Origin: an uncultured delta proteobacterium
GTDB lineage: Bacteria > Desulfobacterota > RBG-13-43-22
Direction of reading: 5' to 3'
NCBI GenBank assembly: GCA_963838485.1
Contig: CAWIRY010000115.1
Coordinates: 2,323-66,322 of the forward strand
DNA: 64,000 nt
Shown: positions 20,332-38,129 of the stretch, one piece after another
Numbering within the stretch: the stretch's first letter is position 1
Layout of the letters: the number at the start of each line of letters is the position of its first letter
Notes under the pieces: generated by a model
Seen by the model: only the letters and a program-made list of their open reading frames with translations
Databases searched by the model: none
Told to the model about the DNA's origin: nothing
Made by a program: the position numbers and the translations under genes

Positions 20332-21123
20332 ATGCAAATGATTTTGTTTCCGGGCTGCAAAGTCCCTTACTATGTCCCTTCTTATGAGACCTCCAGTCGA
20401 ATGGTTTTAGAAAAATTCGGGATTGAATTAATGGATGTCGAACTGAACTGTTGTGGATACCCCATCCGTTTTCTGGATTTCAAGGCCTTTATTTTCTCTT
20501 CGGCCCGAAATATCGCCCTGGTCGGCGAAAGAGGCTTGCCTTTGCTGTGCCTTTGTAAGTGTTGCTACGGCACCTTGCGGTATGCGGATTTTCTTTTAAG
20601 AAAAAATGAGGCCCTTTTGAAAGAAGTCAACGAGGTATTAAAAGAAGAAGGACTCCGGTATCCTTCCAGGATAGAAATTAAGCATCTTTTAAGTGTTTTT
20701 TTTGAGGACATTGACCCGACCAATATCTGGAAAAAAAATACCCGACCTTTTCAAAATCTTAAAGTGGCCGCCCATTATGGGTGTCATATCCTGCGCCCCC
20801 GGGATGTGGTGCGATTTGATAACCCCGTTAAGCCCGACAGGTTTGAGACCTTGATAGATGTAACCGGAGCCATCAGTGTGGATTGGTCGCTGAGGACTCA
20901 ATGTTGCGGGGAGCCTTTATGGGGGAAAAATAATACATTGGCCCTGCAACTGACCAAGAAAAAAATAGCCAGCGCTAAACAAGCGGAGGCTGATGTGCTT
21001 TGCGTGGGCTGCACTCATTGTCAAATGCAATTTGAGAGAGTACGGGAAATGACGAGAAATGAAGATGACAAAAATCAGAGTTTACCATCCATCTTTTATC
21101 CCAACTGTTGGGACTCAGCTTAG
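20332..21123 (+). CDS. HdrB-like protein with two CCG domains.
   Basis: 263 aa with NCCGYP...CxxC and QCCGEP...CVGCTHC. Confidence 0.8.
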   Translation: MQMILFPGCKVPYYVPSYETSSRMVLEKFGIELMDVELNCCGYPIRFLDFKAFIFSSARNIALVGERGLPLLCLCKCCYGTLRYADFLLRKNEALLKEVNEVLKEEGLRYPSRIEIKHLLSVFFEDIDPTNIWKKNTRPFQNLKVAAHYGCHILRPRDVVRFDNPVKPDRFETLIDVTGAISVDWSLRTQCCGEPLWGKNNTLALQLTKKKIASAKQAEADVLCVGCTHCQMQFERVREMTRNEDDKNQSLPSIFYPNCWDSA

Positions 21124-21213
21124 GCTTGGAGGGCCAGGTCCTGGGAATTGACAAGAAGGTGTTGGATCTGATAGAATCGAGAAATTCCGCTGTTTAAAAC
21201 ATTTGGATGAAAT

Positions 21214-21504
21214 TTAAGCCGGGCCGATAACCCAGTTCTGGATCAAAGAGAGCGTCAGTACCCGGTAATTTTTAAAGACTTTCCCCAGTTCTTCATACTT
21301 GACCTTGGCCAGGGGCGGATACATCATCAGGATCAGGCCGATGGCGATGGGGAGATTGGTCGTATCATATTGGAAGAGATTCCAGAACTGAACTACCTTG
21401 GGATAGAGATAGCCGGACCCTACACCCACCAGCATGGCCAAAAAGATCCACAGGGTCAGAAAACGGTCCAGAAAGGAAAGTTTTTTAGGAGTCGTTTCGG
21501 GCAT
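21214..21504 (-). pseudogene. 5'-terminal fragment (96 codons) of an ACR3 arsenite efflux gene; truncated duplicate of 34474..35565.
   Basis: [25 protein letters not shown]... is about 95% identical to the N-terminus of the full-length copy. Homology to the second copy ends at about 21222. Confidence 0.75.
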
Positions 21505-21610
21505 AGTGTTTCCCTCCTTTTCAGGTTTTAAGAAGGGCCTCGATTTGTTCCTTTATTAATGATTCCGGCGGAATCTTTGAGAATGGACCATTCTCGGAGA
21601 CATAGAACCG

Positions 21611-21844
21611 TCACCCCAGGCCGGTTTGGGAAAGCTTCCTGGCCGACGGTTCCAAATCGAAGCCATTGATTTTAATGGTCGGAGAGCCGAAAAATTGATT
21701 TGTCCTGGCTTCTTCCTCGGTATTTATTAAAATTGGTTCAATCAGGATGTTGAGCTGTTTTTCATCTAACACTTTTTGAACCGCCTCCAGCGCCTTGTCT
21801 TTGGCCGGTCAACCCCGGGTATAAAGGACCTGAATATTATGCAT
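21611..21844 (-). CDS. Thioredoxin_3 (redox-active disulfide protein 2)-like 77-aa protein with an in-frame TGA in place of the first CxxC Cys (candidate single-Sec protein).
   Basis: MHNIQVLYTRG-[TGA 21809..21811]-PAKDKALEAVQKVLDEKQLNILIEPILINTEEEARTNQFFGSPTIKINGFDLEPSARKLSQTGLG*. It aligns in length and motif with the Cys paralog at 42163..42396 (VLGPGCPKCG...FGVISTPAVVVDG). Confidence 0.5.
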
Positions 21845-21896
21845 AATCTCCCCGTACTAAAAAAGTTTTCCATCTCCCGGATGGCAAGCATCAGGA

Positions 21897-22169
21897 TCAG
21901 CCATCGGCATCAGTGCCGGGTTGGATCTCGAGGGGAGGAAATGGGGTTGAGGATTGAGGGTTTGTAGCCTTCTTTTCTGGAGTGGGCTTAGGGGCAGGGT
22001 TTGGCTTGTCCGAATTCGAAGTCTGCTTATTGTCCTCAGAACATTCCTGCTGTTGCGGATTGGCTGAACCGGGGGGAAGGTTTTTTTTCTCCTCGGCAAA
22101 AGAAAAGGACCCGATTAGAATAATCAGTAAAACCAAAAACAGTATTGTCAATATGTTTCGACCTGTCAT
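21897..22169 (-). CDS. Secreted Pro/Gln-rich low-complexity protein (signal peptide).
   Basis: MTGRNILTILFLVLLIILIGSFSFA-EEKKNLPPGSANPQQQECSEDNK... Confidence 0.45.
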   Translation of the reverse strand: MTGRNILTILFLVLLIILIGSFSFAEEKKNLPPGSANPQQQECSEDNKQTSNSDKPNPAPKPTPEKKATNPQSSTPFPPLEIQPGTDADG

Positions 22170-22879
22170 AGCCTATCTTACCTTTATTCCTTTCCAATGT
22201 TTGTTAAATAAAGGTACTATACCCGGCAGCCTCCAATATTTCAATCAATCTTTGTCTCACCGCAATTCGGAGGGCAAAGAGGGCGATAACGCAAGATGGG
22301 TATTTCGTCTCCATAAAAAGAGAGGGGAGTGAAGAGTTGGGATCGCTGACTCAAGATCAATGTTACCGAGGTTTAGGGGATAACCTGCCATATTGTGATT
22401 GAGTTTGGAAGATTTTTTAAAGCTTTGTCTCAATGGCAGCTCTCAACAGAAAGAGGTTCAGGGTTTTGAACTGTGCCGTTAGCCTATTTATGCTTGACAA
22501 TCCTGCTTGTTATACCATTAAAATTACAAAGAATTTTATGGGGAATGCCCCGACTGAAACCCCATAAGATATTGTGATCCTTCCTCAGCGGCTCCGTTCT
22601 TCATGCGTCAATCCAAAATTGCTTTCAATGCTTTGAATATTTTCATGTTCTTCCTGCGAGCAACTTCGGATTGACGCTTATTCGAAATGTGGGAGAATTG
22701 GTTGGAATATCTCGGCCTTGACCTCTGGATGGCTTTGTTTTTTTTGCTTCGGTCCTCTTTATCTTTGAGCTGGCTCTGAGTTTATCACATTGTCCATTTT
22801 TCGGGGACCACTTTACCTCCGAGCACACCGACTGTTCGATGGAACCATTGACCTCAAGGTTGCCAGGATTGGTGTTCAA

Positions 22880-23512
22880 TCACTTTACAAATGACCGCAT
22901 GCAGGCAATAGCTGGCTGGAAATTTTTAGAAGGAAATGACTCAAATTCATAATAACCTTCTCCCTGGCAGGTCAGGCATGGTGTCCCCTGTTTGACCGGA
23001 TAGGCTTCATAGCAGACCGGGCAAATTTGGATCTCTCCTTTTTTATTTTTTTCGTAATACCGAGTGATTTGAACCGGTGCCGAATTTAACATCCTTCTGC
23101 CGGCTGTCAAAATATCTTGAACCAATACAGATAAGGGAAGCTCTTTTTTATCCACCAGACGCATATACCAATTATAAACCTTAGGAAAGGCGGAAAGCCT
23201 TCTGAGATCCATCCAGACCCTATATCCCTGAAGACTTTTTTTATTGTAAAGACTCAAAGCAAATTTATCCCAATCCAGGATCTTCATCCAGCCGTTGCCA
23301 CAGGTGCAGGGGGTGAAGAGTTGGACCGCATCGGGCAGGCAGTGAATCGTTTCTACTATGGCATCGGCCTCCAGTTCACTACCCAATAATTCCTGTGCCC
23401 AATCGACCATAAAACCGCCAATGACCACACCCGGGGCGGCCCAACCATGAAATTTTTCAATTGTTTTAATAAAATCTTCTAATGTCCTTCCACAAATGGT
23501 TTCTTTTTCCAT
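22880..23512 (-). CDS. FmdE/FwdE-family protein with a C-terminal zinc ribbon.
   Basis: 210 aa, ...HGWAAPGVVIGGFMV...CPVCYE...CLTCQGEG. Confidence 0.65.
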   Translation of the reverse strand: MEKETICGRTLEDFIKTIEKFHGWAAPGVVIGGFMVDWAQELLGSELEADAIVETIHCLPDAVQLFTPCTCGNGWMKILDWDKFALSLYNKKSLQGYRVWMDLRRLSAFPKVYNWYMRLVDKKELPLSVLVQDILTAGRRMLNSAPVQITRYYEKNKKGEIQICPVCYEAYPVKQGTPCLTCQGEGYYEFESFPSKNFQPAIACMRSFVK

Positions 23513-23775
23513 GTCTGCTTTCGATCTGTTTTGATGGTTCGTCGGTGCCTGCTTCAGGCAGGCATGAGCGCTTAGTTCGAAAATAGATTTTAGACCACCC
23601 TTGATCTCTGTAGGGGCCTATGTAGAGGCGGGTTTAAAACCCGCCCCTACGGGAGATTTTCATGTTCCGTGACCATCCTGCCTGTTCGGTTTGTGGGGAG
23701 ACCCGCGTAAGGCCTCAGTGTCCGTGACCAAGAGAAAAAGGGATCACGCTTGGACGGAGACCTTTTACAACCCCG

Positions 23776-26700
23776 TTAAACAGGAACTACGTTCACCCGG
23801 GTATTGGAAAAAGAGGCACTGCCGCCGATTGGGTCGGTCAAGCAGACATCCTTTAACAACGGGTCCACGGCCATGATATGGTTAACACAGATCCCCGTAG
23901 CCCGACGGCGGTCCCCAGAAATTTTGTGGCCATCGACCACCACATCATTGGACCCATAGGCCCAGTGACCGTAGTGCCAGGACACGGCCAGGGTCCCCGG
24001 ACGAATCCCTTCAACGATATTGACCCGTGCGATCATAGGCACCAGCCGGTTTTCTCCGTCTTTCAACTCTAACTTCCCGCTGGGATTGTCCACCGAAACC
24101 AACCGCACTCGTTGGTCCTGTTTAATGCCGATTTTTAAGGCATCTTCCCGATGAATCAGGATCTTGTTCTCCGGCCTCAAGGCGATGTTGCTCCAGTAGT
24201 TGGAGATGGTCCGGGAGTGACCGCCGAAGGCCTCTTTATAGGTGATGATCTTAAACGGATATTCTTGACCCCGCTTTAGGGGTTTACCGGCAGAATCGAA
24301 TTCCCCGCCAATAAATGGGACACCACTGAAATATGTCCCGCTGAGGCTGTTTTTTTGGGAAGCCACTTCCTCCACGAAGAGGTGAAACATGCTATTCAGG
24401 GCACTTTTCATTTTATCGCCCTCATAGGCTTGGCTGAAATCTGCAAACCGCCCCCCGCGGTTGAGGACATAAACGACTTTCCGCCATTCATTCTCTGACC
24501 GCAGGGCTTGCTTCCAACGCTTTTCGTTAAAAACAGAAAGGGGCAGATGTCGTCTGGCCTTTTGAAAGAGGGCCATTTCGGCGGCATCGGCTTCAGGGAC
24601 ATCCTCGCCGCCCTTATCTCCAAAGGCAATATTGGCCACTTCTTTAAGATACCAGTCCTCCGGCCGGGTGAATGGTATCCCCTTACCAAAGGCGTCCTGG
24701 CCGAATCCGGAGAGCTTCATCCGGGTTCCCACGGCAATTAAAAATGTTTCCATGCAGATAGGCATCCGTTCACCGTTCACCTCCACTTCTTCGGTGAAGG
24801 GTATGGCCACGGGTTGTCGTACCTTGCCTACTTTGGTGGGCACATCCGGCGTATCGTGTGGCATTCCCCACCGTTCCAGATAGGTCAGATCCGGGACAAT
24901 GTAGTCTGCATACATGGAGGTCTCGCCGATGACAATATCACTGGCAATGAAGAGCGGTACCCGGGCCGGATCCTTGAGCATGTCAATGATATGTTGGGTC
25001 CCGCCGGGTATAGAAAGGGCCGGAGTGCCCATGTGAAGGAAAAGGATTTTCCCGGCATAGGGATATCCGGCTGTGAAGGAGGGGATGACCTCCTGGTAAA
25101 CATTGCCGGTAAAGGGATACCAGGGCCGCTTGGCCGGGTAGCCATGTTCTTTGAAAAGGGTGAAATCTTCATACCGGCTCTTCTCACGAGTAATCCTAGG
25201 CCCAAAGGCTTTAAGAGGTCCGGAATGCATATTCTCCAATGGATAGATACTGTCTGGTTTATCTCCAACCTCATGCCAAGAGCCGCCCCCCTTACTGAGG
25301 CCCCCTTTATAATCGGCATTGCCGATGAGGACATTTAAAGTAATGATCAGACAACCGTTATAATATCCGTCTGTCTGCTGTACCGGTCCCCGATACATCT
25401 CCACCACAGACCTCTTTCCGTGAGAGGTGAACTCCCTGGCCACTTCGATGATGGTCATGATATCCACTCCGCTTTCTTCGGCATACTCCTTTAACGTGCG
25501 GGCCATGGCCTGTTCGGTCAGGAGTTGAAAGGCGCTCTTCACGGACAGGCCTTTCACCTGGGTCTTGACCAGGAGATCTCCTTCTATCGGTTTATTTTCA
25601 TCTTCCGGATCTACGGCAATCAGCCGGCCTGCGCGGGAGACTACCCTCTGTTTGGCTGTGCCGATGCCCGCTTCATCGGCCTTCAACAAGGCTATGGGGT
25701 GTCCTTCTACGATCTTTACCAAGTGGCTGGCGTTGGTCCAGGTCGGTTCATCGTCGGCCTTGGCAGCCCCCTTGTTGGCGTTTTCCAGGTACCGTTGGTC
25801 ATAACGGTTATTTTCCAGTATCCATCGAATCATGGCCATAGCCAAGGCCCCGTGGCCATTGGGTTGGACTGGAAGCCACCAGTTGGCCTTACCGGCATCG
25901 TTGGAGAGCCGTGCATCCACCACCGCGGTCTTCAGACCCCGGTGAAGTTTTCCGGTGGTGACCTTCTCGGCCATGGTCACCAGGCTGAAGTTGGCTGTAA
26001 AAGCCCCGGTTCCCCAGAAAATAACAAACTCGGCGTTAGCCAGGTCGGGTTTCATGTGGTTAGTTTTATGTCCGGTCATCAGGTCATAGGCGATGTGGTG
26101 AGACTGCTCACAAATAGTGGTATGTTCATAATGATTCTTCGATCCAAGGGATAATTCGGTAAACCATTTCATTAATTGGGCACGGCCTGGTTGAATGCGG
26201 CCAGCCAGGAAGACGAAGCCGTTATTTTTCGGTCCGAGATCCGGATGTTCAGGATCAATAAGCTGATCCAGATGTTCTCGATACTTTTTCTTAAATTCAA
26301 CAACACTCAATTCCCCCTTGCCACACTTCTGGGCATCTTCAGCCATTTTTTTTGATAACTCGACATCCCTCATGGCCACTACCTCGTCAAATCCCGGGTA
26401 TGGGCGGCTGTCTCCTGCCTCGGCGAACAACTTGCCTCCGCGGACGACTTCTTCTATGAATTGGTTAAAAGGGATGCTCTGCCACTTATTGGACCCTCGT
26501 TCGCCGGCTCGTTTAAGTACCTTTCGAATCCGGTAGGGATCGTAATAGGTTTGGATACCGGCCTGCCCCTTGGCGCACAGCTTCCCGTCAATAGTCGCCG
26601 CATCCTGGGGGCGGGTCTTATAAGGAATATGGGGGAGAAAAGTCTGAGGGCTGTAAGGACTCCCCGTCAACTTGGCCAGGGTTCCGTCCCAGATTTTGGC

Positions 26701-26952
26701 CTTGATCTGGCAGGATACATGGCATTGGAGGCAGGTGGTATAAATCTGGTTTTGGGGCTGGGCCAGCTCGTATGCGCCCTGGCTGTCTGCCTCTTTGGTC
26801 TCGGTCAGGCCTCCAAAAATTTTGCTTGCCTGAGCGGCCAGGATGGCACATCCCCCCACAAAGGCTGTTGACTGGATCAATTGACGACGAGTAATTCCTT
26901 TTTGCTCGTTTTTCTTGTTTTCTACAGATCGTTGGTCATGTTTGACGCGCAT
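23776..26952 (-). CDS. ttrA: Molybdopterin (bis-MGD) oxidoreductase catalytic subunit, TtrA-like, with a Tat signal.
   Basis: 1058 aa with TRRQLIQSTAFVGGCAILAA (Tat) and CLQCHVSCQ (an N-terminal [4Fe-4S] motif). The size and the B-C-A gene order match tetrathionate reductase. Confidence 0.65.
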   Translation of the reverse strand: MRVKHDQRSVENKKNEQKGITRRQLIQSTAFVGGCAILAAQASKIFGGLTETKEADSQGAYELAQPQNQIYTTCLQCHVSCQIKAKIWDGTLAKLTGSPYSPQTFLPHIPYKTRPQDAATIDGKLCAKGQAGIQTYYDPYRIRKVLKRAGERGSNKWQSIPFNQFIEEVVRGGKLFAEAGDSRPYPGFDEVVAMRDVELSKKMAEDAQKCGKGELSVVEFKKKYREHLDQLIDPEHPDLGPKNNGFVFLAGRIQPGRAQLMKWFTELSLGSKNHYEHTTICEQSHHIAYDLMTGHKTNHMKPDLANAEFVIFWGTGAFTANFSLVTMAEKVTTGKLHRGLKTAVVDARLSNDAGKANWWLPVQPNGHGALAMAMIRWILENNRYDQRYLENANKGAAKADDEPTWTNASHLVKIVEGHPIALLKADEAGIGTAKQRVVSRAGRLIAVDPEDENKPIEGDLLVKTQVKGLSVKSAFQLLTEQAMARTLKEYAEESGVDIMTIIEVAREFTSHGKRSVVEMYRGPVQQTDGYYNGCLIITLNVLIGNADYKGGLSKGGGSWHEVGDKPDSIYPLENMHSGPLKAFGPRITREKSRYEDFTLFKEHGYPAKRPWYPFTGNVYQEVIPSFTAGYPYAGKILFLHMGTPALSIPGGTQHIIDMLKDPARVPLFIASDIVIGETSMYADYIVPDLTYLERWGMPHDTPDVPTKVGKVRQPVAIPFTEEVEVNGERMPICMETFLIAVGTRMKLSGFGQDAFGKGIPFTRPEDWYLKEVANIAFGDKGGEDVPEADAAEMALFQKARRHLPLSVFNEKRWKQALRSENEWRKVVYVLNRGGRFADFSQAYEGDKMKSALNSMFHLFVEEVASQKNSLSGTYFSGVPFIGGEFDSAGKPLKRGQEYPFKIITYKEAFGGHSRTISNYWSNIALRPENKILIHREDALKIGIKQDQRVRLVSVDNPSGKLELKDGENRLVPMIARVNIVEGIRPGTLAVSWHYGHWAYGSNDVVVDGHKISGDRRRATGICVNHIMAVDPLLKDVCLTDPIGGSASFSNTRVNVVPV

Positions 26953-26955
26953 GGG

Positions 26956-28107
26956 TTAATTTCCTCCCTCATTGACAGATTTTGTTGAAAGGATTGGCAG
27001 AAACCGGATGCCCAGATAAAAGAGGGCGATAAATAGGGCCACAGCGAAGGCAAAGACCGACCATTCATGGATCGATGGGAAGTATACGAACTTGAGCCGG
27101 TTATCCGAATAGGCCTCCTGAAGTCCCTTCATGGCCGGGGTTACTTGGCCAGGGATCACCTGGTTCAGGCGAACCGCGAAGTGGGCCACGGCAATCAGCA
27201 GGCCAGCCCATCCGGCATTCAGACGGTTTGCTGGCTTCCGTATCAGCATCACCAATGGAATGATGATTCCGGCCAGAAGGTGAACGATCCAAAAGACGTA
27301 CCAATAGGAACCGAAGAGGATGGACCAGAGCACCGTATAGGTTCTATCCCTTCCATACCACATGGTTACCGAAAATTCCGACCACTCCAGAATGATTACC
27401 AGGAAGAGCAGGCCTACGACTGACCGACTCAAGAGGGATAGGGTCTCCCGGTCCTTGGAAGAATCCGTGAAACAGAAAAAGGCTGCGACAGCTAAGATCA
27501 AGGCAAGGCCGGAAGACAAACCATCGCCAATAGAGAGGACCGGGCCGAGGGAGGTGTGCCAATAGGGACTGGATATCAGGGTGGCGAATTCAGCACCGTT
27601 GCCGCCGGAGAAGATGATGGCCAGGCCCATACCGATCCAGCCGAGGCGGCGGTAGGTCTTGGTTGCTAAGGGATAGGGTTTTATTTCCATGGCCAGGATT
27701 ATGGCGATATAGGCCAAGTAGCCCATCGAAATCCAACTGGAGATGGTCAACAGGGAGAAAAAGTTGGGCCGAAAAAAGACCTCCTGCAGTCGCCACATAT
27801 GCCCCAGGTCGAAGGAGATGATCGTAAGCCCAACCACCAGGTTGACCAGGGACAGCCACAGGGCGGGACGTACCAGGCCACGGAATCGCTCAATTTGAAA
27901 GGCATAACAAACCCAGGCAAAAAAGGAAACCCCCTCTGCCAGGCCGATAAAATAGATTTTTGCGGAAACCCATAATCCCCAGGGGACGTAGCTGCCGTAA
28001 TCGGCGAGCAGATGACCATATATCATCCGCTGCATTACACCGAAAAGGCCCCAGATCATCAGGGCGACCCAGGCAATACCGATGACTTTTTTTTGCGTTT
28101 TTGTCAT
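26956..28107 (-). CDS. ttrC: NrfD/PsrC-family membrane anchor (TtrC-like).
   Basis: 383 aa, polytopic, lying between the Fe-S and catalytic subunit genes. Confidence 0.65.
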   Translation of the reverse strand: MTKTQKKVIGIAWVALMIWGLFGVMQRMIYGHLLADYGSYVPWGLWVSAKIYFIGLAEGVSFFAWVCYAFQIERFRGLVRPALWLSLVNLVVGLTIISFDLGHMWRLQEVFFRPNFFSLLTISSWISMGYLAYIAIILAMEIKPYPLATKTYRRLGWIGMGLAIIFSGGNGAEFATLISSPYWHTSLGPVLSIGDGLSSGLALILAVAAFFCFTDSSKDRETLSLLSRSVVGLLFLVIILEWSEFSVTMWYGRDRTYTVLWSILFGSYWYVFWIVHLLAGIIIPLVMLIRKPANRLNAGWAGLLIAVAHFAVRLNQVIPGQVTPAMKGLQEAYSDNRLKFVYFPSIHEWSVFAFAVALFIALFYLGIRFLPILSTKSVNEGGN

Positions 28108-28119
28108 AAAATTTCTCCT

Positions 28120-29094
28120 TTAAACCAGGTAATAAACAGAAGGGTTCGTTCCTAATTCCTCTTTTAGTCGGGTGACCCGTGAAGAACCTATAAGCTCATG
28201 GGCCAGGCTGTGAAGGTCATGGTAATCCCCGAAATAGGTGGCCCCACCCACACAGGTCGTAACGCAGGCAGGGAGCATGCCCTCACGGAGCCGATGGAGA
28301 CAGAAATGGCACTTCCGGGCGTTTCCGATGGGGGAGCGTTCCCGGTGGGGATCCCGCCGCCACTTTTTGCTGTACTCGAAGTTAGGCCGGGTTTCATAAT
28401 TCATAATCGCCGGGGTAGAGCCCCCATAAAATTCTCCGAAATCCGCTGTGCGTGCGTTGTACGGACAGGCCGCCACGCAGTTGCGGCAACCGATACAAAT
28501 TTCATAATCTATGACCACGACCCCATCTTCTCTCTTCCAGGTCGCCCTGACCGGGCAGACCGGCACACAGGGCGGTTTGTCACATTGCATGCAAGGTCTG
28601 GGGGTGAAGATCCTTCGTACATCCGGGAACTGCCCTACTTCCTGTTCGGGCACGACCCGGTAAACCACGCCCGGGGGTAGATTATTCTCCGTACAGCAGG
28701 ATACGGTGCAGGCCTTACAGCCGATACATTTCTGCTGATCAATCACCATCACCCATTTGCGTTCCCGGACGGGCTTTTTCATGGCTTTCAAAAGTTCTGC
28801 CCGCATCCGTTCCAGGGTGCTGCCCTCGGCAAAGCTTTCCGGATGGTTCAGCGGTTTGGCCTCAGGGGCGGTTTCCAGGGCCAAGGCAGACTTGGCTGTC
28901 AATGACCCCAAAATCCCCATACCACTGATAGCCGCCAGTGAACGGCCAATAAAATTCCGGCGTTCCAAGTCAGCCCCCGTCGCCTCCGCAGTAGATTTTG
29001 TCTGGCGCTGCCTGGAATCTTGGTCCCCTTTCCCCTGGGCGGATCCTTTCTGGGGGCTGGGATTGGATCGATTGGATGAAAACTTTTCGGTCAT
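28120..29094 (-). CDS. ttrB: Four-cluster [4Fe-4S] electron-transfer subunit (TtrB-like) with a Tat signal.
   Basis: 324 aa with [16 protein letters not shown] and multiple CxxCxxCxxxCP motifs. Confidence 0.65.
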
Positions 29095-29251
29095 AAAAAT
29101 CTCCTTTCTAAAATGTGAAGCCGGATAATGATCATAATTCCTGGGCCAAAATGATACCTCTCTGATTCATAACCCAATGGCCTTTCGAACACTAAGCGAA
29201 GATAGAGTCAAGTTAACCCTCCTTCCGCAAATAGTGATGTTATCCATGCCC

Positions 29252-30223
29252 TCAGCTTTCCGTTTGATTTAGATAAATATGATCCGGATGATTGAGGATC
29301 ACTTTGGTGTCCGGCGGAACGCTCGACGTAATCCAGACGTTGCCTCCGATGGTCGTTCTGGCCCCAATAACGGTCTCACCTCCTAAGATAGTGGCATTGG
29401 CATAAATAATCACGTCATCCTCAATGGTTGGATGGCGCTTCTTGTCACGATAAAGATTGCCGGCATTCTGGGGCAGAGAGAGAGCCCCCAGGGTTACTCC
29501 TTGATAGATCCGCACCCGGTTCCCAATCACCGTGGTTTCACCGATGACCACGCCGGTTCCATGGTCGATAAAAAAATACTCTCCGATCTGGGCACCGGGA
29601 TGAATATCGATTCCCGTCCTGCTATGGGCGTATTCAGTCATCATTCGGGGAAGTAAAGGGATGCCCATCCCATGTAACGTATGGGCGATCCGGTAAACGG
29701 TTATGGCAAAAAGTCCCGGATAGCTGACAATAATTTCCGTGTGACTTTTGGCTGCCGGGTCTCCCTCAAAGGCGGCCTGGATATCTTTGATCAGCAGATT
29801 TTTTGTGTTTGGAAGGCTTTGTAGGAACTCGGCGGCTTTTTCATACCCTCGATCGAGGTGAAAGCTGCAAGGCCAATCAAGTTGGTTGCATTCGTGGGGA
29901 AAAGACAAACGGATTTGCTTGACTAATATCTTGTAAAGGGTCTGAATTCCCAAGGCCAGGTTATTTTCTCGCTGATCAGGATTCAAAACTTGATCGCCCA
30001 AATTTCCAGGGAATAGTATTCGTCTGATTTGATCCACCAGTTGGATGACTTCTTCCGGATTGGGTGAGGAAACACTGTCATTGTCCCTTTCCGAGGAAAT
30101 GGGTTCGGACCCATTAAGTAATTCCAAGGCCAGTGAATGGCAAACATCTGAGATGGATTGAGATTGGTAAAACCTTTTCGGGGACGGGTGTGTGGCCAGG
30201 GTTCTCATGCCGATCATCCTCAA
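29252..30223 (-). CDS. cysE: Serine O-acetyltransferase.
   Basis: SATase N-terminal domain plus hexapeptide repeats FFIDHGTGVVIGETTVIGNRVRIYQGVTLG. Confidence 0.8.
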   Translation of the reverse strand: MRMIGMRTLATHPSPKRFYQSQSISDVCHSLALELLNGSEPISSERDNDSVSSPNPEEVIQLVDQIRRILFPGNLGDQVLNPDQRENNLALGIQTLYKILVKQIRLSFPHECNQLDWPCSFHLDRGYEKAAEFLQSLPNTKNLLIKDIQAAFEGDPAAKSHTEIIVSYPGLFAITVYRIAHTLHGMGIPLLPRMMTEYAHSRTGIDIHPGAQIGEYFFIDHGTGVVIGETTVIGNRVRIYQGVTLGALSLPQNAGNLYRDKKRHPTIEDDVIIYANATILGGETVIGARTTIGGNVWITSSVPPDTKVILNHPDHIYLNQTES

Positions 30224-30846
30224 CGTTTTATTTGAAAAATTCCATAGGTTGCCCGAAAATTGGGTAGATGGTTGATCATCTTACCTCTTTTATCCTGATC
30301 CTGGGTATTGATGGCCGTCCATTTAACAATCTCAAAGCCGACTTCCCCTGAAAATCGTTTAAAATCCTTGATGGTGATGACCCGGATATTCGGGGTGTCG
30401 TACCATTGATAAGGAAGCTGGGGGGTGACCGGTGCATAGCCTCTAAACATCAACTGCATTCGTATCCGCCAGTGACTGAAATTCGGAAAACTGACGATCC
30501 CGTTGTGTCCGATGCGCAGTATCGACCGGATCAATTGATCCGGTTCATAAACCAGTTGAAGCGTCTGGCTCAAGACTACATAGTCGAAACTCTTATCCGG
30601 AAAGTCTTCTATCTCTTCATTCAGATCCCCTTGCAGAACGGAAAGTCCCCTTTCGATGCAGCGGGCGGTCTTGGACTCATTCTTTTCGATGCCCTTACCC
30701 TCAATATTCTTTTGGGTCTTCAGGTACAAGAGAAGATCCCCTTCCCCGCAGCCGAGATCCAGTACCCTGGCCCCCGGTTCGATCCAGGAAGCCACCAACT
30801 GCAGGTCAAAACGAATCCCATTATTTTTAAAGTTCACGATAGACAC
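30220..30846 (-). CDS. metW: Methionine biosynthesis protein MetW.
   Basis: 208 aa with VLDLGCGEGDLL, adjacent to metX. Confidence 0.75.
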   Translation of the reverse strand: MSIVNFKNNGIRFDLQLVASWIEPGARVLDLGCGEGDLLLYLKTQKNIEGKGIEKNESKTARCIERGLSVLQGDLNEEIEDFPDKSFDYVVLSQTLQLVYEPDQLIRSILRIGHNGIVSFPNFSHWRIRMQLMFRGYAPVTPQLPYQWYDTPNIRVITIKDFKRFSGEVGFEIVKWTAINTQDQDKRGKMINHLPNFRATYGIFQIKR

Positions 30847-31993
30847 GATCCAAAAATCCCCTGATCATTTCACTTAATTTTTCATTGGGAAGCAGGAAGG
30901 CGTCATGTCCCCATTGGGCTTCGATTTCACAGAAGCTGACATCCTTACCATTTTTTTTTAAGGCCCGTGCAATGGCCTTGGATTGGTAAGTGGGGTACAA
31001 CCAATCAGAGGTAAAGGAGACCACCAGAAATTTGGTCCGAGTTTTAGAAAAGGACTGTACCGCAGATCCGTTGCCGTGTTGGAGACCCAGATCAAAATAA
31101 TCGGCGGCCTTGGTGATATATAAGAAAGAGTTGGCATCGAACCGTTCGACGAATTTTGTGCCCTGATACCTTAAATAGCTTTCCACTTGAAAATCAGCCT
31201 CAAAGTTATAAGAGAAATCATTCTTATCCTGGAGTCGGCGACCGAATTTCTGGCGCATGGATTCATCGGAAAGGTAGGTGATATGCCCGATCATACGGGC
31301 CACTGCCAGGCCTAAGGAAGGGCCAGTCCCCGAGTAGTAATCGCCGCCGTTCCAGTTGGGATCTGCCATGATGGCCTGCCGGGCCACCTCATTGAAGGCA
31401 ATGGCCAGGGCCGAATGTTTAGTGGTCGTCGCCAGGGGGATGGCGGAAATAATCATCTCGGGAAAGAGAACGGACCATTCCAACACCTGCATCCCACCGA
31501 TGGATCCCCCGATAACCGAGAGGATCTTTTTAATACCCAGATGATCCAGCAATTGCCTTTGGGCCAAGACCATGTCCCCAATGGTTACCACCGGAAAGTT
31601 CAAGCCATAAGGTTTATCACTCTTGGGGTTAATAGAAGAAGGCCCGGTTGATCCCAGACAGCTTCCCAGGATATTGGAACAGATGACAAAATATTTATCG
31701 GTATCGATTCCCTTTCCCGGCCCGACCATAATATCCCACCAGCCCGGCTTGTTGTCCTCCTGGGAATAATAGCCGGCCACGTGGGAATCCCCGGATAAGG
31801 CATGTAATATGAGGACAGTATTGTCCTTCTCCCTGTTTAATGTCCCATAGGTTTCATAAGCCAGGGTCAACGGTCCCAGGCGGGTCCCGCATTCCAGAAC
31901 CATCTCATCGGGAGGTTCGGCGAAGGTGAAATATTTTTTTTCCACCACTCCCACGGAGATCCCTTTGGGGTCATTTTCAATATATTCGCTCAA
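30827..31993 (-). CDS. metX: Homoserine O-acetyltransferase. Start tentatively the TTG at 31993, overlapping the metY stop as TTGA.
   Basis: ...VLILHALSGDSHVAGY...GGSIGGMQVLEW... (alpha/beta hydrolase, GxSxG). Confidence 0.75.
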   Translation of the reverse strand: MSEYIENDPKGISVGVVEKKYFTFAEPPDEMVLECGTRLGPLTLAYETYGTLNREKDNTVLILHALSGDSHVAGYYSQEDNKPGWWDIMVGPGKGIDTDKYFVICSNILGSCLGSTGPSSINPKSDKPYGLNFPVVTIGDMVLAQRQLLDHLGIKKILSVIGGSIGGMQVLEWSVLFPEMIISAIPLATTTKHSALAIAFNEVARQAIMADPNWNGGDYYSGTGPSLGLAVARMIGHITYLSDESMRQKFGRRLQDKNDFSYNFEADFQVESYLRYQGTKFVERFDANSFLYITKAADYFDLGLQHGNGSAVQSFSKTRTKFLVVSFTSDWLYPTYQSKAIARALKKNGKDVSFCEIEAQWGHDAFLLPNEKLSEMIRGFLDRVYREL

Positions 31994-33254
31994 TGGGGGA
32001 GTCCCTCTAAAGCCTGTCCCAGGTCCTCGCAAAGATCCTCGGCATCCTCAATCCCTACGGAAAGGCGGATCATATCGGGTCTAATCCCCAAGCTCTGCCG
32101 GGTTTCTTCATCAAAAGAAATATACTGGGAGGAGTATGGGTGAATCACCAGGGTCTTGCAGTCCCCTAAATTGGCCAGGTGATAGATTAAACGAAGCCGT
32201 TTGATAAATTTAAAACAGGCCCCCTGGTCCTTGAGGCCGAAGGTAATCAAACCGCCAAATCCTTTCCCCTTAAACTGGGTCTCCGCCGTAAGGTGGGAGG
32301 GATGGTCTTTGAATCCGGGGTAATTGACCCAAACAACCTCGGGTCTTCCTTTTAAGTATTCGGCGATCAAGGCGGTATTTTTTAAAGTCTCTTTCATCCG
32401 AAGCGACAGGGTGTCCAAACCGAGCATGGTCAAAAAGGAATGAAAGGGGGACTGGGTAGTTCCGAAATTGATATGGTGTTCCCTCCATACCTTATCCAGG
32501 AAGGCCAAAGGCCCCTTGCGGTCGATAAAGGGTTTAAAGTCCGGGAAGCGGTCTTCGGACCAGGGGAAGGTGCCCTTATCGATTACCACACCCCCGACGG
32601 CTGCCCCGTGACCACTTAGATATTTGGTAGTGGAATGAATAACTATATCGGCACCGAACTCAAAAGGACGGCACAAGGTAGGGCGAGGTCAGGGTGTTGT
32701 CCACGACCAGGGGGATCCCCTGACGATGGGCAACATCGGAAATTTTTTTGAGGTTCGGGATATCCAGCTTGGGGTTGCCGATAGTTTCCAGGTAGACAAA
32801 CCGTGTCTGGTTATTGATGGCTTTGGCAATGGCCTCAATGTCAGTGGACTCCACCAGCCGAGCCTGGATACCATATTTCTTAAACACCTTATTAAAAAGG
32901 AGGTACGTGGACATGAAGAGGGAATTCCCGGAAACAAATTCATTCCCCGTCCTGAGCAACGCCATACAGGCATTGGTAACGGCCGGCCATGCCTGATGAC
33001 ATGACGATGGCGCCCTGCCCTCCTTCTAATAGGGTTAGTTTCTCTTCCAAAGTGCGGTTGGTGGGATTGGTTAACCTCATGTAGATATGATCGGCGGTCT
33101 GCCCGGCAAAAGTCTGACTTAAACTTTCCGCAGTCGGATGAAGGTGTGAAGCGGTCTGGAAGATCGGGGACAGGGTCGACCCCTCCCAGGATTCCGGCGA
33201 TTGTCCGGCGTGGATGACTTGGGTGTCAAAATGATATGGGGTTTCGCTTACCAT
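31990..33254 (-). CDS. metY: O-acetylhomoserine sulfhydrylase (PLP-dependent, MetY-like), split over three frames by two 1-nt indels at about 32960 and 32670.
   Basis: Segments ...QVIHAGQSPE...SSGMAG / ...LLRTGNEFVSGNSLF...IPLVVDNTLTSPYL / ...GADIVIHSTTKYLSGHG... Ordered together they give a complete MetY. Confidence 0.7.
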
Positions 33255-33291
33255 AAGGGTCTTCCATCGATTTAAAAGGTTTATCCGTCAA

Positions 33292-33696
33292 TTAGAATTC
33301 CAAAATAGGTTTAAAGACTTGGCATTTTTTACAGATTTCAATCTTGTCGCTCCAATTTTTATGGACTTCACCTTCACAGATGGTCCCGTTTATAAACCAG
33401 CAGAGGAGGCCGGCTTTATATTTCCAAGCCGGACATTGCTTTTTTCTATCGGGAGGGCATTTTTTAATAGTCCAGCAGGGTTTAGAACTTAAGGCTAATT
33501 TCTTTTGTCCCGAAATCAAGAAAAGGATCTGTCGTTCCATGTTGTCTGGAATGTTGCGCCAGCCTTGTTCATAGCTGTGAACGGCCTTAATCGAAGTCAT
33601 CAGAAGTTGGGCCAATTCCTTCTGTGTCAGCCCTAACTGTTTTCGGTAAAAAGCAAATTTTTTACTGTCCATTTTTCCCTCGATAGAGGCATCCAT
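33292..33696 (-). CDS. XRE-family HTH regulator fused to a C-terminal Cys-rich (8 Cys) domain.
   Basis: LTQKELAQLLMTSIKAVHSYEQG (HTH_3), then CWTIKKCPP...CPAWKYKAGLLCWFINGTICEGEV...CKKCQVF. Confidence 0.55.
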   Translation of the reverse strand: MDASIEGKMDSKKFAFYRKQLGLTQKELAQLLMTSIKAVHSYEQGWRNIPDNMERQILFLISGQKKLALSSKPCWTIKKCPPDRKKQCPAWKYKAGLLCWFINGTICEGEVHKNWSDKIEICKKCQVFKPILEF

Positions 33697-33880
33697 AAAT
33701 TAATTTGATTAAAAGATACCACAATGTGGTATAAATGTCAAGAAAAAAATAGTGATTTAAATAACTCAAGGGGATGAAAAGGAAGAGGAATTAGAGTAAT
33801 CCCCTAATTTAAAACCACTTTTTTCGTTATACTGTGGATGGGATAGAGATTACCGGGCGGGGTGGTATGGTATAAGGAGT

Positions 33881-34405
33881 TCATTGATCAAGATTAAAAG
33901 GGGTCAAATACTCGCTTAGCTTTTTTCTGTTTTCCATCGACAGCGGGGGGCAGTCTTCCGCACCTTTTACCCCCTCGGTAACGGCTACGGCAAAAACCAT
34001 ACAGGTCGGTTCTCCGCATTCCCGGCAGTTGGTTTTCGGCAAGATCTTCAGGACCTCAAAGACCTGCGGACGGGGCAGGCTTTCATAGGATGGCTCGATT
34101 TCATCCCGTTTTTCCCAGGCTTCATTAATTTCCCGTTTCAGCCACTCAAGGATCTTATCCGCTTCGCCCTCGTCCTTAAGGGCATTAATGGTGATCTTAT
34201 CGGGATGAACGGTAATGAGCTTACCCTGGGGCCGAAACGTGACGGCCGGGGGGTCTTGATAATACTCGTCGCCGCCAAGCACGGCATTCAGGTAAGGTAA
34301 CACCTCTCTGATATTTTCATCCAGGTGGGCGATGCAGTGCAGGGACTGGAAACTTGGATTGCACTCGGGCCGAAAAATTTCTTTACTATAGCCACTTAGC
34401 AGCAC
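33881..34405 (-). CDS. Hypothetical protein with a C-terminal PF04060-type [4Fe-4S] motif.
   Basis: ...LPKTNCRECGEPTCMVFAVAVTEG...CPP. Confidence 0.45.
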   Translation of the reverse strand: MLLSGYSKEIFRPECNPSFQSLHCIAHLDENIREVLPYLNAVLGGDEYYQDPPAVTFRPQGKLITVHPDKITINALKDEGEADKILEWLKREINEAWEKRDEIEPSYESLPRPQVFEVLKILPKTNCRECGEPTCMVFAVAVTEGVKGAEDCPPLSMENRKKLSEYLTPFNLDQ

Positions 34406-34473
34406 GATCTTATTCTCCTATCTGTTTTTGTTTTTCGCCCTGGACCTTGTGCCTTGTACCTTGAGCCTCTCTT

Positions 34474-35565
34474 TTATGGTTTGCAGGTGACATGACAAAC
34501 ACCGGTCGGCGTTTCTACGGCAAAGGGGAAGTATTTCCGTTTGAACCAGAGGGCTACGTTGACCAGACTGATCAGGACCGGGACCTCGACCAATGGGCCG
34601 ATGACGGCGGCAAAGGCCGCTCCCGATTTGATGCCGAAAACGGCCACGGCCACGGCAATGGCCAGCTCGAAATTATTGGAGGCGGCGGTGAAGCTCAAGG
34701 TGGTGGCCTGTTCATAAGTCGCCTTGACCTTCACGGACATATAGAAAGAGATAAAGAACATGATGACGAAATAGATCACCAAAGGCAGGGCAATACGCAG
34801 CACATCTAAGGGCAATTGGACGATATATTCCCCTTTGAGAGAGAACATGACGATAATGGTGAAGAGCAGGGCGATGAGGGTGATAGGACTGATTTTGGGG
34901 ATGAATTTTTCATGGTACCAAATCTTGCCCTTGATTTTGATCAGGGTGAATCGGGTGATGATCCCGGCAATAAAAGGAATCCCCAGATAAATAAAAACAC
35001 TCTTGGCGATCTGGCCGATGGAGATGTCCACCACCGTGCCTTTCAGGCCGAACCAGCCCGGCAGGATGGTGATAAAGATATAGGCGTAAACGGAGAAAAA
35101 GAGGACCTGAAAGATGGAATTGAAAGCCACCAAACCGGCACAGTATTCGGTGTCGCCAGAGGCCAGTTCATTCCAGACAATGACCATGGCGATACAGCGG
35201 GCCAGACCGATCATGATTAAACCCACCATGTATTCCGGGTATCCGGCCAGAAAAAGGATGGCCAGAAAGAACATGAGGATGGGGCCGATAACCCAGTTCT
35301 GGATCAAAGAAAGCGTCAGTACCCGGTAATTTTTAAAGACTTCCCCCAGTTCCTCATACTTGACCTTGGCTAAGGGTGGATACATCATCAGGATCAGGCC
35401 GATGGCGATGGGGAGATTGGTGGTGTCATATTGGAAGAGATTCCAGAACTGGACCACCTGGGGATAGAGATAGCCGGACCCTACACCTACCAGCATGGCC
35501 AAAAAGATCCACAGGGTCAGAAAACGGTCCAGAAAGGAAAGTTTTTTAGGGGTTGGTTCGGTCAT
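34474..35565 (-). CDS. acr3: Arsenite efflux transporter, ACR3 family.
   Basis: 363 aa, [25 protein letters not shown]... with 10 TM helices. Confidence 0.9.
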
Positions 35566-35670
35566 TTGTCCTCCTTCCTTGTCAGGTGTTAAGAAGAGCC
35601 TTGATTTGTTCTCTGATTAATGATTTCGGTGGAATTTTTGAGAATGAACCATTCTCGGAAATGTAATAGC

Positions 35671-35905
35671 GTCACCCCAAGCCGGTTTGCCATAGGTCCC
35701 TGGCGGAGGGTTCCAAATCGAAGCCATTGATTTTAATGGTTGGAGAGCCGAGAAATTGATTTGTCCTGGCTTCTTCCTCGGTATTTATTAAAATTGGTTC
35801 AATCAGGATGTTGAGCTGCTTTTCATCTAACACTTTTTGAATCGCCTCCAGTGCCTTGTTTTTGGCCAGTCAGCCCTGGGTATAAAGGACCTGAATATTA
35901 TGCAT
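35671..35905 (-). pseudogene. Second copy of the TGA-containing thioredoxin_3-like gene. The in-frame TGA is conserved, but a 1-nt insertion (C at about 35816) shifts the frame after codon 28.
   Basis: MHNIQVLYTQG-[TGA 35870..35872]-LAKNKALEAIQKVLDE, then a frameshift. With the extra C removed it reads through as copy 1 does (...SPTIKINGFDLEPSARDLWQTGLG). Confidence 0.45.
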
Positions 35906-35958
35906 AGTCTCTCCCGCACTGAAAAAGTTTTCCATCTCCCGGATGGCAAGCATCAGGA

Positions 35959-36231
35959 TCAGCCATCGGCATCAGTGCCGGGTTGGATCTCGAGCGGAGG
36001 AAATGGGGTTGAGGATTGAGGGTTTGTAGCCTTCTTTTCCGGAGTGGGCTTAGGAGCAGGGTTTGGCTTGTCCGAATTAGAAGCCTTCTTGTTGTCCTCA
36101 GAACACTCTTGCTGTTGCGGATTGGCTGAACCGGGGGGAAGGTTTTTTTTCTCCTCGGCAAAAGAAAAGGACCCGATTAGAATAATCAGTAAAACCAAAA
36201 ACAGTTTTGTTAATATATTTCGATTTGTCAT
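35959..36231 (-). CDS. Secreted Pro/Gln-rich protein (copy 2).
   Basis: MTNRNILTKLFLVLLIILIGSFSFAEEKK... Confidence 0.45.
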   Translation of the reverse strand: MTNRNILTKLFLVLLIILIGSFSFAEEKKNLPPGSANPQQQECSEDNKKASNSDKPNPAPKPTPEKKATNPQSSTPFPPLEIQPGTDADG

Positions 36232-36265
36232 AACCTTCCTAACCTTTATTCCTTTCCAGCAGGGG

Positions 36266-37480
36266 TTAAATAAAGGTACTATACCCGGCAGCCTCCAATA
36301 TTTCAATCAGTCTTTGCCTCAAGCTATAATACCTCCAGTCCCAAAGCCTCGAGAGAAATTCTTTCCACGGTATAATATGAATGCCATCGTGAATCCGTTG
36401 CTTACGTTCATTGCATACCAGGTAGGCGCTCCTAGGCTGGTAGTCCTGGACGAAGGCCTTCAGGGGACGGAGTTCTGCGCTGCCGATACGAGCGGCGCCC
36501 TTGACTTCGATAGCGATTTCCCCGCGGCCTAATATAAAATCAACTTCCAAACCCGTTTTGGTCCTCCAGAAATTAATCTCATATTCCAGATCACTGTAGG
36601 AACGATGGGCGATGAACTCCATGAGGATAAAATGCTCAAAGGCCCTTCCAAACTGTTCTCCCTTTTGTTCAGGGATATGGCGCCCGGTGAGACCACCGAC
36701 AATTCCAACATCGAACAAATAGAACTTTCCAGCCTTGGTGATGACCTGCCTTTCCTGGCGTTTTTTGTACGGCTCGATCATGATCCCGAGTAAGGTGTCA
36801 ACCAGGATTTGATAATATTCTTTGACGGTTTTAGCATCCACCCCGCATTCCCGGGCGATGTTGGCATAGTTGGTCAATTCCCCGTGGGAATATCCCATAG
36901 CCTCAAAAAATCTTGAAAAGGCTGGAATATTCCGGGTAAGACCTTCATCAAAAACCTCCTCTTTGAGGTAATCCCGGACATAAGACCGAAGCGATTTACG
37001 GTATTCTTCTTCCAGATAATGAGCGGGTATCAGGCCCCTATTTAAGGCCTTGAGGAGATCGAGGTTCCCTATTTCCATAGAAATCAGCGGATGCATCTCG
37101 TAACGCCAGGCCCGGCCTCCCAGGAGGTTGGCCTTGCCCCGTTTCAATTTCCTGGCGCTGGAACCGCATAAAAGGAAACGAAGTCCCTTGTTCTCTATTA
37201 GCCAGTGCACCTCATCAAGCAATTGCGGGACCTTTTGGACTTCATCAATGATGATCGGCTCCTTGAGTTGCTGCGGATTGGATGCCAAGAGCTGTTCTCG
37301 TAACAGATAGGGGCGCTTGGCGAAATCCAGGAAAAGATCAGTTCGCAACAAATCGAACCGCAGGCTTTTAGGGAAAGCCTCTTTAAGGAAGGTTGTTTTT
37401 CCAGTTTTTCTCGGTCCCCAGAGAAAAGCTGACTTTCCTTTCGGAAGGGTGATCCGGATTATTCTTTTGATGTTAACCAT
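36266..37480 (-). CDS. AAA+ ATPase with a DUF4143-type C-terminal domain.
   Basis: 404 aa with the Walker A GPRKTGKTT. Confidence 0.7.
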   Translation of the reverse strand: MVNIKRIIRITLPKGKSAFLWGPRKTGKTTFLKEAFPKSLRFDLLRTDLFLDFAKRPYLLREQLLASNPQQLKEPIIIDEVQKVPQLLDEVHWLIENKGLRFLLCGSSARKLKRGKANLLGGRAWRYEMHPLISMEIGNLDLLKALNRGLIPAHYLEEEYRKSLRSYVRDYLKEEVFDEGLTRNIPAFSRFFEAMGYSHGELTNYANIARECGVDAKTVKEYYQILVDTLLGIMIEPYKKRQERQVITKAGKFYLFDVGIVGGLTGRHIPEQKGEQFGRAFEHFILMEFIAHRSYSDLEYEINFWRTKTGLEVDFILGRGEIAIEVKGAARIGSAELRPLKAFVQDYQPRSAYLVCNERKQRIHDGIHIIPWKEFLSRLWDWRYYSLRQRLIEILEAAGYSTFI

Positions 37481-38129
37481 TAAGGATAATCCTCCTTTTT
37501 AGTTATACTAAAAAGGAATAGTATTCCCTAAGAAATCAACTGTCAACAAGAAAGAGTGGTGGAGCTTTAAGGCTCTCCCCTATCTCCGATGCTATCGAAC
37601 ATTGTTCTGAATGAACCGGACTGGGAACCGGAAAGACGAGGACACTGAGTGATCTCTATTGATATACGGCTTTCTACCGCCTTGAGTACGGTATTCAAAC
37701 CATCCAGTTTCATCTTTCTTGCTTCTTTTCCTACTTCCCTGGGAATTATCAATGATCGGGCGGGACGTAGGTGGTTCGAATTATGAGGCTAAAATGGTCG
37801 AACATATTAAAAGTGAGGGGAGATCAGGAATTATTCTTCCTTCTAAATTAAAAAACTGACTTTTACGGAGTTGTAGTATATTACATAATTAGTATATAGT
37901 GATATAGTTTGAGCTATTGATGTTGTCAAGTAAAATTTAACTGCTCAATTGTCGGATTTAAAAATCCGAATGGACTTAAAATCCAAGACGAAGGAGGTGA
38001 GCTGGATGAAACAAAATCGCATGTTTATTCCGGAAATAATTCCTTTACTTTCTTGCTTGACATTACTTCGTAGTATAATTTACAAATAGTCATGTAAATT
38101 TAATTATTACACGTAAAAAGGATTTTGAT

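Follow-up and report, generated by a model that had tools for sequence, protein, structure and literature searches.

Why does the same 1-kb stretch occur twice, in the same orientation and 13 kb apart, with one copy breaking off inside an arsenite efflux gene (acr3)? The question was raised by a locus of an uncultured delta proteobacterium (Desulfobacterota; RBG-13-43-22) on contig CAWIRY010000115.1 of assembly GCA_963838485.1. A window of 64 kb was analysed (contig positions 2,323 to 66,322, forward strand), and all coordinates below are counted from its first base unless another contig is named. A preliminary description had read the two copies as direct repeats around a sulfur and molybdoenzyme segment, suited to deletion or amplification of that segment or marking its old insertion into an acr3 locus. 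Our best explanation, to which a probability of about 60% is given, is that the structure is real, that the left copy (copy 1) is what a recent truncation left of a second operon of a small open reading frame (ORF), a DF-family selenoprotein gene and acr3 at a rearrangement hotspot, and that the block between the copies is native to the locus.

Local alignment placed copy 1 at 21221..22259 and copy 2 at 35282..36321, in direct orientation and with a spacing of 13,022 bp. Of 1038 aligned bases, 956 were identical (92.1%), with three indels of 1 nucleotide (nt), and the copies shared perfectly identical tracts of 96, 73, 66 and 62 nt. The orientation had been described correctly; the coordinates first given were off by one base, and the identity of 93% is really 92%. 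Outside both borders identity fell to the random level (~25–30%) within a few bases. Homology restarting past either border and remnants of acr3 or of the ATPase gene next to copy 2 in 22260..22879 were searched for and not found, and no second repeat family of at least 60 nt was detected in the window.

Read on the minus strand, the repeat consists of the stop triplet of the ATPase gene, a promoter, an ORF of 90 amino acids (aa), the DF gene and the first ~94 codons of acr3. About 75% of it is thus promoter and two intact genes, including the one for the selenoprotein, and the remainder is the start of acr3; treating the repeat as "acr3" had missed most of its content, and the truncation of acr3 in copy 1 was correctly recognised. 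The acr3 stub of copy 1 (21214..21504, minus strand) has 96 codons, of which ~94 are homologous before "PA*". Homology ends abruptly at 21221, and the frame closes two codons past this point. The stub covers SBF profile positions 1–42 of 191 only and is not a complete transporter. In copy 2 the same module runs on into a full-length ACR3-family arsenite efflux gene (34474..35565, minus strand; 363 aa; TIGR00832 461.7 bits, cutoff 282.8), followed by a PF04060 Fe-S gene, an arrangement met in many acr3 loci. As judged from the reading frames, arsenite export is possible for copy 2 only.

Identical sigma-70-like promoters, TTGAAA-17-TATAGT, were assigned by consensus match only at 22216..22244 in copy 1 and 36278..36306 in copy 2 (both minus strand). 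The small ORF (21897..22169 in copy 1, 35959..36231 in copy 2, minus strand) is intact in both copies and in the related locus L165. Its product had no Pfam match and has a hydrophobic N-terminal helix (signal peptide) followed by a Pro/Lys/Asn-rich tail. Between the copies, omega was 0.16 for the small ORF and 0.22 for the DF gene. Because the ORFs are intact and the promoter is identical, copy 1 probably expresses both the small protein and the DF selenoprotein. A read-through extension of the small ORF (TGA-TCC-TGA-TGC) was dropped, as its frame is not kept in copy 2. The spacer between small ORF and DF gene (21851..21896) is 44/46 identical between the copies, above the average of the repeat. 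A hairpin CCATCCGGGAGATGG followed by AAAACTTTTT is conserved there (21870..21884 and 35932..35946, minus strand); it could be an attenuator or a processing site.

In two contig collections no genome of the same species was found. A scan of genome contigs with Acr3 returned relatives at up to 89% aa identity, in none of which the part of the repeat outside acr3 had a nucleotide match, and the best match of a metagenome scan with the TtrA-like protein of the block reached 73% aa identity. A TtrA-like search of a larger protein collection yielded a 90%-identity cluster of 18 sequences, and six same-genus loci (L165 to L170; TtrA 89–94% aa identity) were compared with the window. Two DF-acr3 modules were found in 0/6. 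As the preliminary description had expected of a variable locus, structures differ among the relatives, and single-copy versions exist in L165 and L169. Their gene order is upstream flank (u62), small ORF, DF, acr3, Fe-S, cytochrome-like, XRE, MetY stub, TtrBCA, FmdE, MetYXW and reversed HdrB.

Copy 1 with 62–75 nt past its right border corresponds to the single module with its upstream flank (91.4% to L165; window 22321..21221 = L165 3432..4537), and copy 2 with the rest of acr3 and the Fe-S gene corresponds to the module with its downstream context (88.4% to L165). The flank u62 (22260..22334, minus strand) is kept by copy 1 only, is homologous to sequence upstream of the single module in both L165 and L169 (54/62 identical to L165) and has no relation to the flank of copy 2. 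The flanks of the single-copy state are therefore divided between the two window copies, as is expected if one locus has been duplicated. Window TtrBCA is 92–93% identical to that of the relatives, and the HdrB side, up to 21190, is 91–93% identical.

The same genes follow DF-acr3 in the single-copy relatives, so the genes between the repeats are old neighbours and not an insertion. Their content is as first described: FmdE, TtrA-like, NrfD, 4Fe-4S, CysE-like, MetW/X/Y, XRE/two-CW and PF04060 proteins. They are present in L165 and L169 without the repeats and in the same order after DF-acr3, and no presence or absence of the block as a unit was seen among the relatives. The idea that the 13-kb block is a repeat-bracketed unit, either inserted into an acr3 locus or excising or amplifying through its repeats, can point to a likeness to composite transposons and excisable islands, namely a gene block between direct repeats. 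It can also point to the identical tracts of up to 96 nt, which make recombination between the copies physically possible and could serve RecA-dependent deletion or amplification. The window repeats are, however, operon 5' ends and not insertion sequence (IS) elements: they carry promoter, small ORF, DF gene and the acr3 5' end only, and no transposase, integrase or target-site duplication was found at their borders. Deletion between them would also lose the sole intact acr3. Mismatch-repair barriers act against such exchange, an 8% sequence mismatch strongly reducing recombination. An insertion of the block is disfavoured, and a bracketed unit of any of these kinds is considered highly improbable.

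The wider comparison showed how freely this region is rearranged. An XRE-TtrB-NrfD-TtrA-FmdE core was common to 6/6 relatives, with completely different flanks that include ArsR/CDF/thioredoxin (Trx)/DsbD modules, AFOR/ThiS, Met genes and DF-acr3; the four relatives besides L165 and L169 keep the XRE-TtrBCA-FmdE core amid wholly different surroundings. A shared core with different flanks marks the island as a rearrangement hotspot. L169 has three additional genes (2.5 kb) before HdrB, at the MetW|HdrB junction. In L165, L166, L168 and L169 TtrB directly adjoins the XRE region (window 33125 joined to 29135), and a 57-aa ORF at this joint (L166 697..870, L168 2739..2912) consists of the N-terminal ~41 residues of MetY plus read-through. 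By this sequence the XRE|TtrB joint is the scar of a deletion that took 4 kb (MetY-MetX-MetW-CysE) out of the order seen in the window. Since the relatives keep a MetY stub, the window order XRE-MetYXW-CysE-TtrB looks like the older one there, and gene stubs left by deletion recur in the island.

The right border of copy 2 is formed by an AAA_14/DUF4143 ATPase gene unit with its own promoter (36319..37555, minus strand). All homologues of the ATPase have 386–387 aa and end in ...LWDGGIIA*; the window version has 404 aa, a 1-nt insertion near 36337 shifting its last 5 codons. In the native frame its stop (TGA, 36321..36319) is the first triplet of copy 2, and truncation or fusion of the ATPase at the repeat border was rejected on these grounds. 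In three other genomes (L161, L163, L164) ~83% nt identity extends from ~50–75 nt upstream of the ATG to the exact stop codon. The conserved upstream part covers the unit's own TTGACA promoter and a palindrome, TTTTAGT..ACTAAAA, and the flanks are unrelated in all four contexts, window included. Conservation to the exact stop with unrelated flanks indicates a discrete, independently placed gene unit, whose 3' border is the right border of copy 2. More than 120 ATPase protein clusters were at least 75% identical.

At the right of copy 1, u62 is joined through an AAGA microhomology to a noncoding 160-nt segment (22325..22482, plus strand), an inverted match to L169 17192..17351, that is, to the variable MetW|HdrB junction. 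Past this segment, ~400 nt of unmatched sequence extend to FmdE. At the left, a filler of ~30 nt (21191..21220) lies between the end of the HdrB-side homology and the acr3 stub, as delimited by comparison with the relatives. A likeness of "GGCCGATAA" between the region downstream of HdrB in L169 and the start of the stub covers ~9 nt with no further homology and is at most tentative. With short microhomology, filler and an inverted piece, the junctions of copy 1 look like products of illegitimate recombination. A motif like RTGTTACCNAGRGG is repeated around the 160-nt segment in the window and in L169 (17160..17400), and the segment itself could be a regulatory or recombination-prone element.

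Junctions of this kind had to be weighed against an assembly artefact, with copy 1 as a chimeric fragment from a co-occurring related population or the contig misjoined at the repeat. A Logan contig (L171, run ERR12036783) matched window 32698..22659 at 99.95% and, as an independent assembly, confirmed the order MetY-MetX-MetW-CysE-TtrBCA-FmdE-spacer. It differed from the window by two 1-nt indels, each frameshifting one assembly only: an extra C at 32678 splits window metY, and an extra G at 25285 splits TtrA of L171. Because the indels differ between the two assemblies, the split genes of the window were read as probable consensus errors of noisy long reads and not as pseudogenes. Apparent 1-nt frameshifts were noted in metY (32678; 32940..32985), a ParA/Mrp-like gene (14940..15000), the C-terminus of a sigma-54 activator (17420..17480), the ATPase gene (~36337) and the HdrB C-terminus (~21100).

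Error-prone reads, seen in the indels against L171 and in several other split genes, speak for an artefact, as do related lineages ~8% apart that share sampling sites (L165 and L170 in ERZ25039477; L164, L166 and L169 in ERZ25039489). Consensus errors of 1 nt, however, cannot make 81 substitutions or a 1-kb insert. A misjoin at a repeat leaves a single hybrid copy and not two complete ones, each flanked on either side by unique sequence, and copy 1 would require two independent chimeric joints 1.1 kb apart. Its joints, with microhomology and filler, are typical of true illegitimate recombination, and it is at most 92% identical to every available relative. An artefact is therefore regarded as improbable.

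The age of the copies was estimated with L165 and L169 as references. Over 1,039 bp, identity was 91.7% between copy 1 and copy 2, 92.0% between copy 1 and L165, 91.2% between copy 2 and L165 and 96.6% between L165 and L169. Changes were distributed as 34 on the terminal branch of copy 1, 41 on that of copy 2 and 32 on the internal branch, with the midpoint root ~4 substitutions from the node of the two copies. The copies are thus equidistant with the root near their node, and their divergence equals that of the species backbone (91–93%); each is as distant from the other as from the sister orthologue.

The stub nevertheless looks young. It differs from copy 2 by 12 synonymous and 4 non-synonymous changes (omega 0.09), with 3/4 of the latter in codons 2–4. 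Under neutral drift since the split, four or fewer non-synonymous differences of 16 have P ~0.002. When changes in the stub were polarised by means of L165 and L169, 3 synonymous and 2 non-synonymous ones fell on the branch of copy 1, and a pooled neutrality test with the copy 1-branch synonymous rate over all three genes gave P=0.0045. Distant acr3 outgroups were rejected for polarising, synonymous sites being saturated, and L165 and L169 were used instead. So few non-synonymous changes imply that both acr3 genes were functional while most of the divergence accumulated, and that copy 1 was truncated only recently. Identity is also patchy over this region: the window Fe-S gene (33881..34405) is 93–98% identical to L169 and 77–85% to L165, which are sisters elsewhere (97.8% identical in TtrBCA and 92% in the region of the module). 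Such mosaic identity indicates that co-occurring lineages exchange DNA by frequent homologous recombination, and the 8% divergence of the copies may reflect allelic difference instead of age.

In the course of events favoured here, a second module would have been placed at the FmdE|HdrB junction of a plastic metalloid/thiol-redox island by illegitimate, microhomology-type recombination, whether as the joint of a ~14-kb duplication or through import of sister-lineage DNA, and its acr3 would then have been cut recently by a deletion reaching the HdrB 3' end. The two routes are about equally likely, and each is put forward tentatively. By the first, a ~14-kb unit (u62-module-acr3-FeS-XRE-Met-CysE-TtrBCA-FmdE-spacer) would have been duplicated in tandem within the lineage, with the novel joint at 22325..22334. 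Nearly all of the second unit, from acr3 codon ~96 to the HdrB 3' end, would have been deleted afterwards, the ATPase unit would later have replaced the flank upstream of copy 2, and the 8% divergence would stem from later inter-lineage allelic replacement, not age. The split flanks are what this predicts, the u62 joint has microhomology, and the patchy identity of the Fe-S gene attests to active gene flow. It is at odds with copies no closer to each other than to L165, and a perfect 14-kb tandem would be unstable, yet purifying selection seemingly acted on copy 1 acr3 while most of the divergence built up; the scheme also needs three or more additional events.

By the second route, one module would have come from another species-level lineage of the genus, via transformation or other transfer with illegitimate or one-sided homologous recombination, and would have been truncated later or fragmentary on arrival. 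The equidistance of copy 1, copy 2 and L165 fits this, and a low omega, as in the stub, is expected of two alleles that were both functional, each in its own genome. Some samples contain several related lineages, and identity along the region is mosaic. No donor lineage was identified, however, and with an ancestral upstream flank on copy 1 and an ancestral downstream context on copy 2, neither copy is clearly foreign. Both routes can be compared with segmental duplication of an operon fragment leaving a truncated pseudogene. The likeness lies in two direct copies, one ending mid-gene, in microhomology with filler and in split flanks; the difference is that the window copies are as diverged as sister-species orthologues, yet the stub looks young. 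Diverged copies with a young stub mean that a simple scheme of duplication followed by decay fails unless lineages exchanged DNA or a second operon stayed functional for long.

Several points weigh against our best explanation. The border of copy 2 coincides exactly with the ATPase stop, which the discrete nature of the ATPase unit explains only partly. The test for a young stub rests on small counts (worst-case P=0.028; stub alone P=0.09). The inverted 160-nt segment demands an extra event. L171 ends ~400 nt before copy 1, so that both of its junctions are known from the window assembly alone, and this short contig was the only same-species sequence found; no within-species variant lacking copy 1 or the block was obtained. 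Taken as structure, the feature is an ordinary genome scar: part of an operon is duplicated within an often reshuffled island of a metagenome-assembled genome (MAG). It teaches that, where lineages exchange DNA, a rearrangement is not dated by the percent identity of its repeat copies, that missing non-synonymous decay can date a gene stub, and that genes in long-read MAGs can look like pseudogenes through 1-nt assembly errors.

The stronger lead is the gene content of the repeat. The DF gene of copy 1 (21521..21844, minus strand; 107 codons) has in-frame TGA triplets at 21809..21811 (codon 12) and 21611..21613 (codon 78), and that of copy 2 (35582..35905, minus strand) has them at 35870..35872 and 35672..35674. 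With TGA translated as Cys, the ORF scored 100.5 bits with NCBIfam NF049942, "DF family (seleno)protein" (cutoff 70), residues 4–99 aligning with profile positions 1–95 of 96, and 25.6 bits with Pfam DUF2703 (cutoff 23.6). By this match the gene is a member of a known selenoprotein family, with two predicted selenocysteine (Sec) residues. Although the two genes differ synonymously in 14 codons and non-synonymously in another 14, each has an intact frame with both TGA triplets, and the triplets are kept in copy 1, copy 2, L165 and L169 while surrounding codons vary. They align with the only two invariant Cys residues (C12 and C78) of 32 Cys/Cys homologues, in which F51, S54, P55, D63, R79 and P92 are invariant as well. 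The genetic code is standard, as TGA also terminates the DF ORF.

A SECIS-like (selenocysteine insertion sequence) hairpin, GAGAAUG-GUC-CAUUCUC, with a perfect stem of 7 bp, stands 15 nt after the second TGA of copy 1 (21579..21595, minus strand). It is conserved in copy 2 with the loop GUU (35640..35656, minus strand) and in L165 (consensus GAGAAUG-GUY-CAUUCUC). A convincing conserved hairpin after the first TGA was looked for and not found; Rfam at gathering thresholds gave no match in the 64-kb window, and no selA, selB or selC was seen there.

A word-indexed protein search with DF gave no match, because gene callers truncate Sec genes, and neither did a metagenome scan with the DF protein. 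Homologues were obtained by exhaustive HMMER search with the segment between the TGA triplets, which returned 147 cluster representatives. Cys occupies positions 12 and 78 in 48/147. In 55/147, position 12 is Cys and the protein ends one residue before position 78 (Sec read as stop), and in 8/147 the ORF starts after position 12 and stops at 78, which looks like the U..U form of the window. The closest full-length Cys/Cys homologue (P0127, 39% identical) was modelled with AlphaFold2 as a proxy (predicted local distance difference test score (pLDDT) 95; beta-alpha-beta-alpha-beta-beta-alpha). Its best PDB matches were SelW-related proteins and thioredoxins, all at E > 1e-3. On this model of P0127 only, the DF fold is thioredoxin-like.

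Cys forms of DF accompany arsenic genes elsewhere. In the arsR-arsC-arsC-DF-acr3 operon of L044, acr3 begins 3 nt after the DF gene, and in L050 the DF gene belongs to an acr3-Trx3-DF-Trx-DsbD cluster. DUF2703, a thioredoxin-fold family, was noted earlier in a Rhodococcus ars cluster (PMC6514093). In the literature, no account was found of a DF selenoprotein together with acr3. The window genes agree with NF049942 in a score above the cutoff, in the occupation of both invariant Cys positions (here by TGA) and in the predicted thioredoxin-like topology, and they share the position directly upstream of acr3 with the Cys form of L044 and the vicinity of acr3 with that of L050. They differ in that both redox positions are predicted to be Sec (U..U, ~8/147 clusters) and that two genes occur within 14 kb, each behind its own promoter and small secreted-protein ORF. 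A DsbD-like membrane protein and a thioredoxin (window 40075..41187, minus strand) accompany acr3 in many loci, and in L050 they directly follow the Cys-form DF gene (7712..8821). These neighbours hint at a periplasm-directed thiol relay linked to DF and Acr3.

The genes of the block all lie on the minus strand: FmdE (22880..23512), the TtrA-like molybdenum enzyme (23776..26952), NrfD (26956..28107), the 4Fe-4S subunit (28120..29094), CysE-like (29252..30223), MetW (30220..30846), MetX (30827..32032), MetY (31990..33254), the XRE/two-CW regulator (33292..33696) and the PF04060 Fe-S protein (33881..34405). To their left, an HdrB-like CCG-domain gene (20332..21198, plus strand) converges on the stub and belongs to the backbone orthologous to L165 and L169. 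The TtrA-like protein is a molybdopterin oxidoreductase, and it scored far below the cutoff of the TtrA equivalog NF011567 (505 bits, cutoff 1750). In distant TtrA-like loci (~70% aa identity; L081–L091, L104, L154), the gene of a PAS/sigma-54 activator precedes TtrB by ~1.5 kb, and often a PF04060 Fe-S protein with an SBF/Acr3-like transporter, or a true acr3, is encoded close by; the corresponding window positions are 17444..18505 and 23776..29094. The substrate of the enzyme may be related to arsenic or sulfur chemistry. Around the Ttr genes, matches to the sigma-54 promoter consensus did not exceed chance.

To the right of copy 2 are genes for an ArsC of the low-molecular-weight-phosphatase type, an MFS transporter, a DsbD-like protein with thioredoxin, CDF transporters and an ArsP-type permease, and the window is a metalloid and thiol-redox island. 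Its transposase nearest to the repeats is an rve-family protein with helix-turn-helix domains (IS element; 49774..50790, plus strand), ~13 kb right of copy 2, and no link between it and the repeat was found.

What the DF protein does beside Acr3 can be approached by comparison with ArsD, an arsenite metallochaperone that is at most a functional parallel. ArsD too is a small thiol-based thioredoxin-fold protein encoded beside an arsenite pump gene; it differs in that no sequence relationship to DF was found and that its partner is the ArsA ATPase, not Acr3. We know of no binding or transfer activity for DF proteins. By this analogy, the Sec12/Sec78 pair would bind or deliver As(III) or sustain a thiol/selenol redox relay, as ArsD serves ArsA. 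DF would then be a selenol-based arsenite-handling partner of Acr3, and the retained, separately promoted second pair of small ORF and DF gene would not be debris but a unit kept as an adaptation, for its dosage or after sub-functionalisation; we regard this as rather doubtful. What carries beyond the locus is an uncharacterised DF protein with two predicted selenocysteines, repeatedly encoded directly upstream of acr3, a coupling through which a connection of selenium use with arsenite resistance can be put to a concrete test. If the proposed role is true, two kept double-Sec genes would point to selenium-dependent arsenic resistance in these sulfate-reducer-like bacteria.

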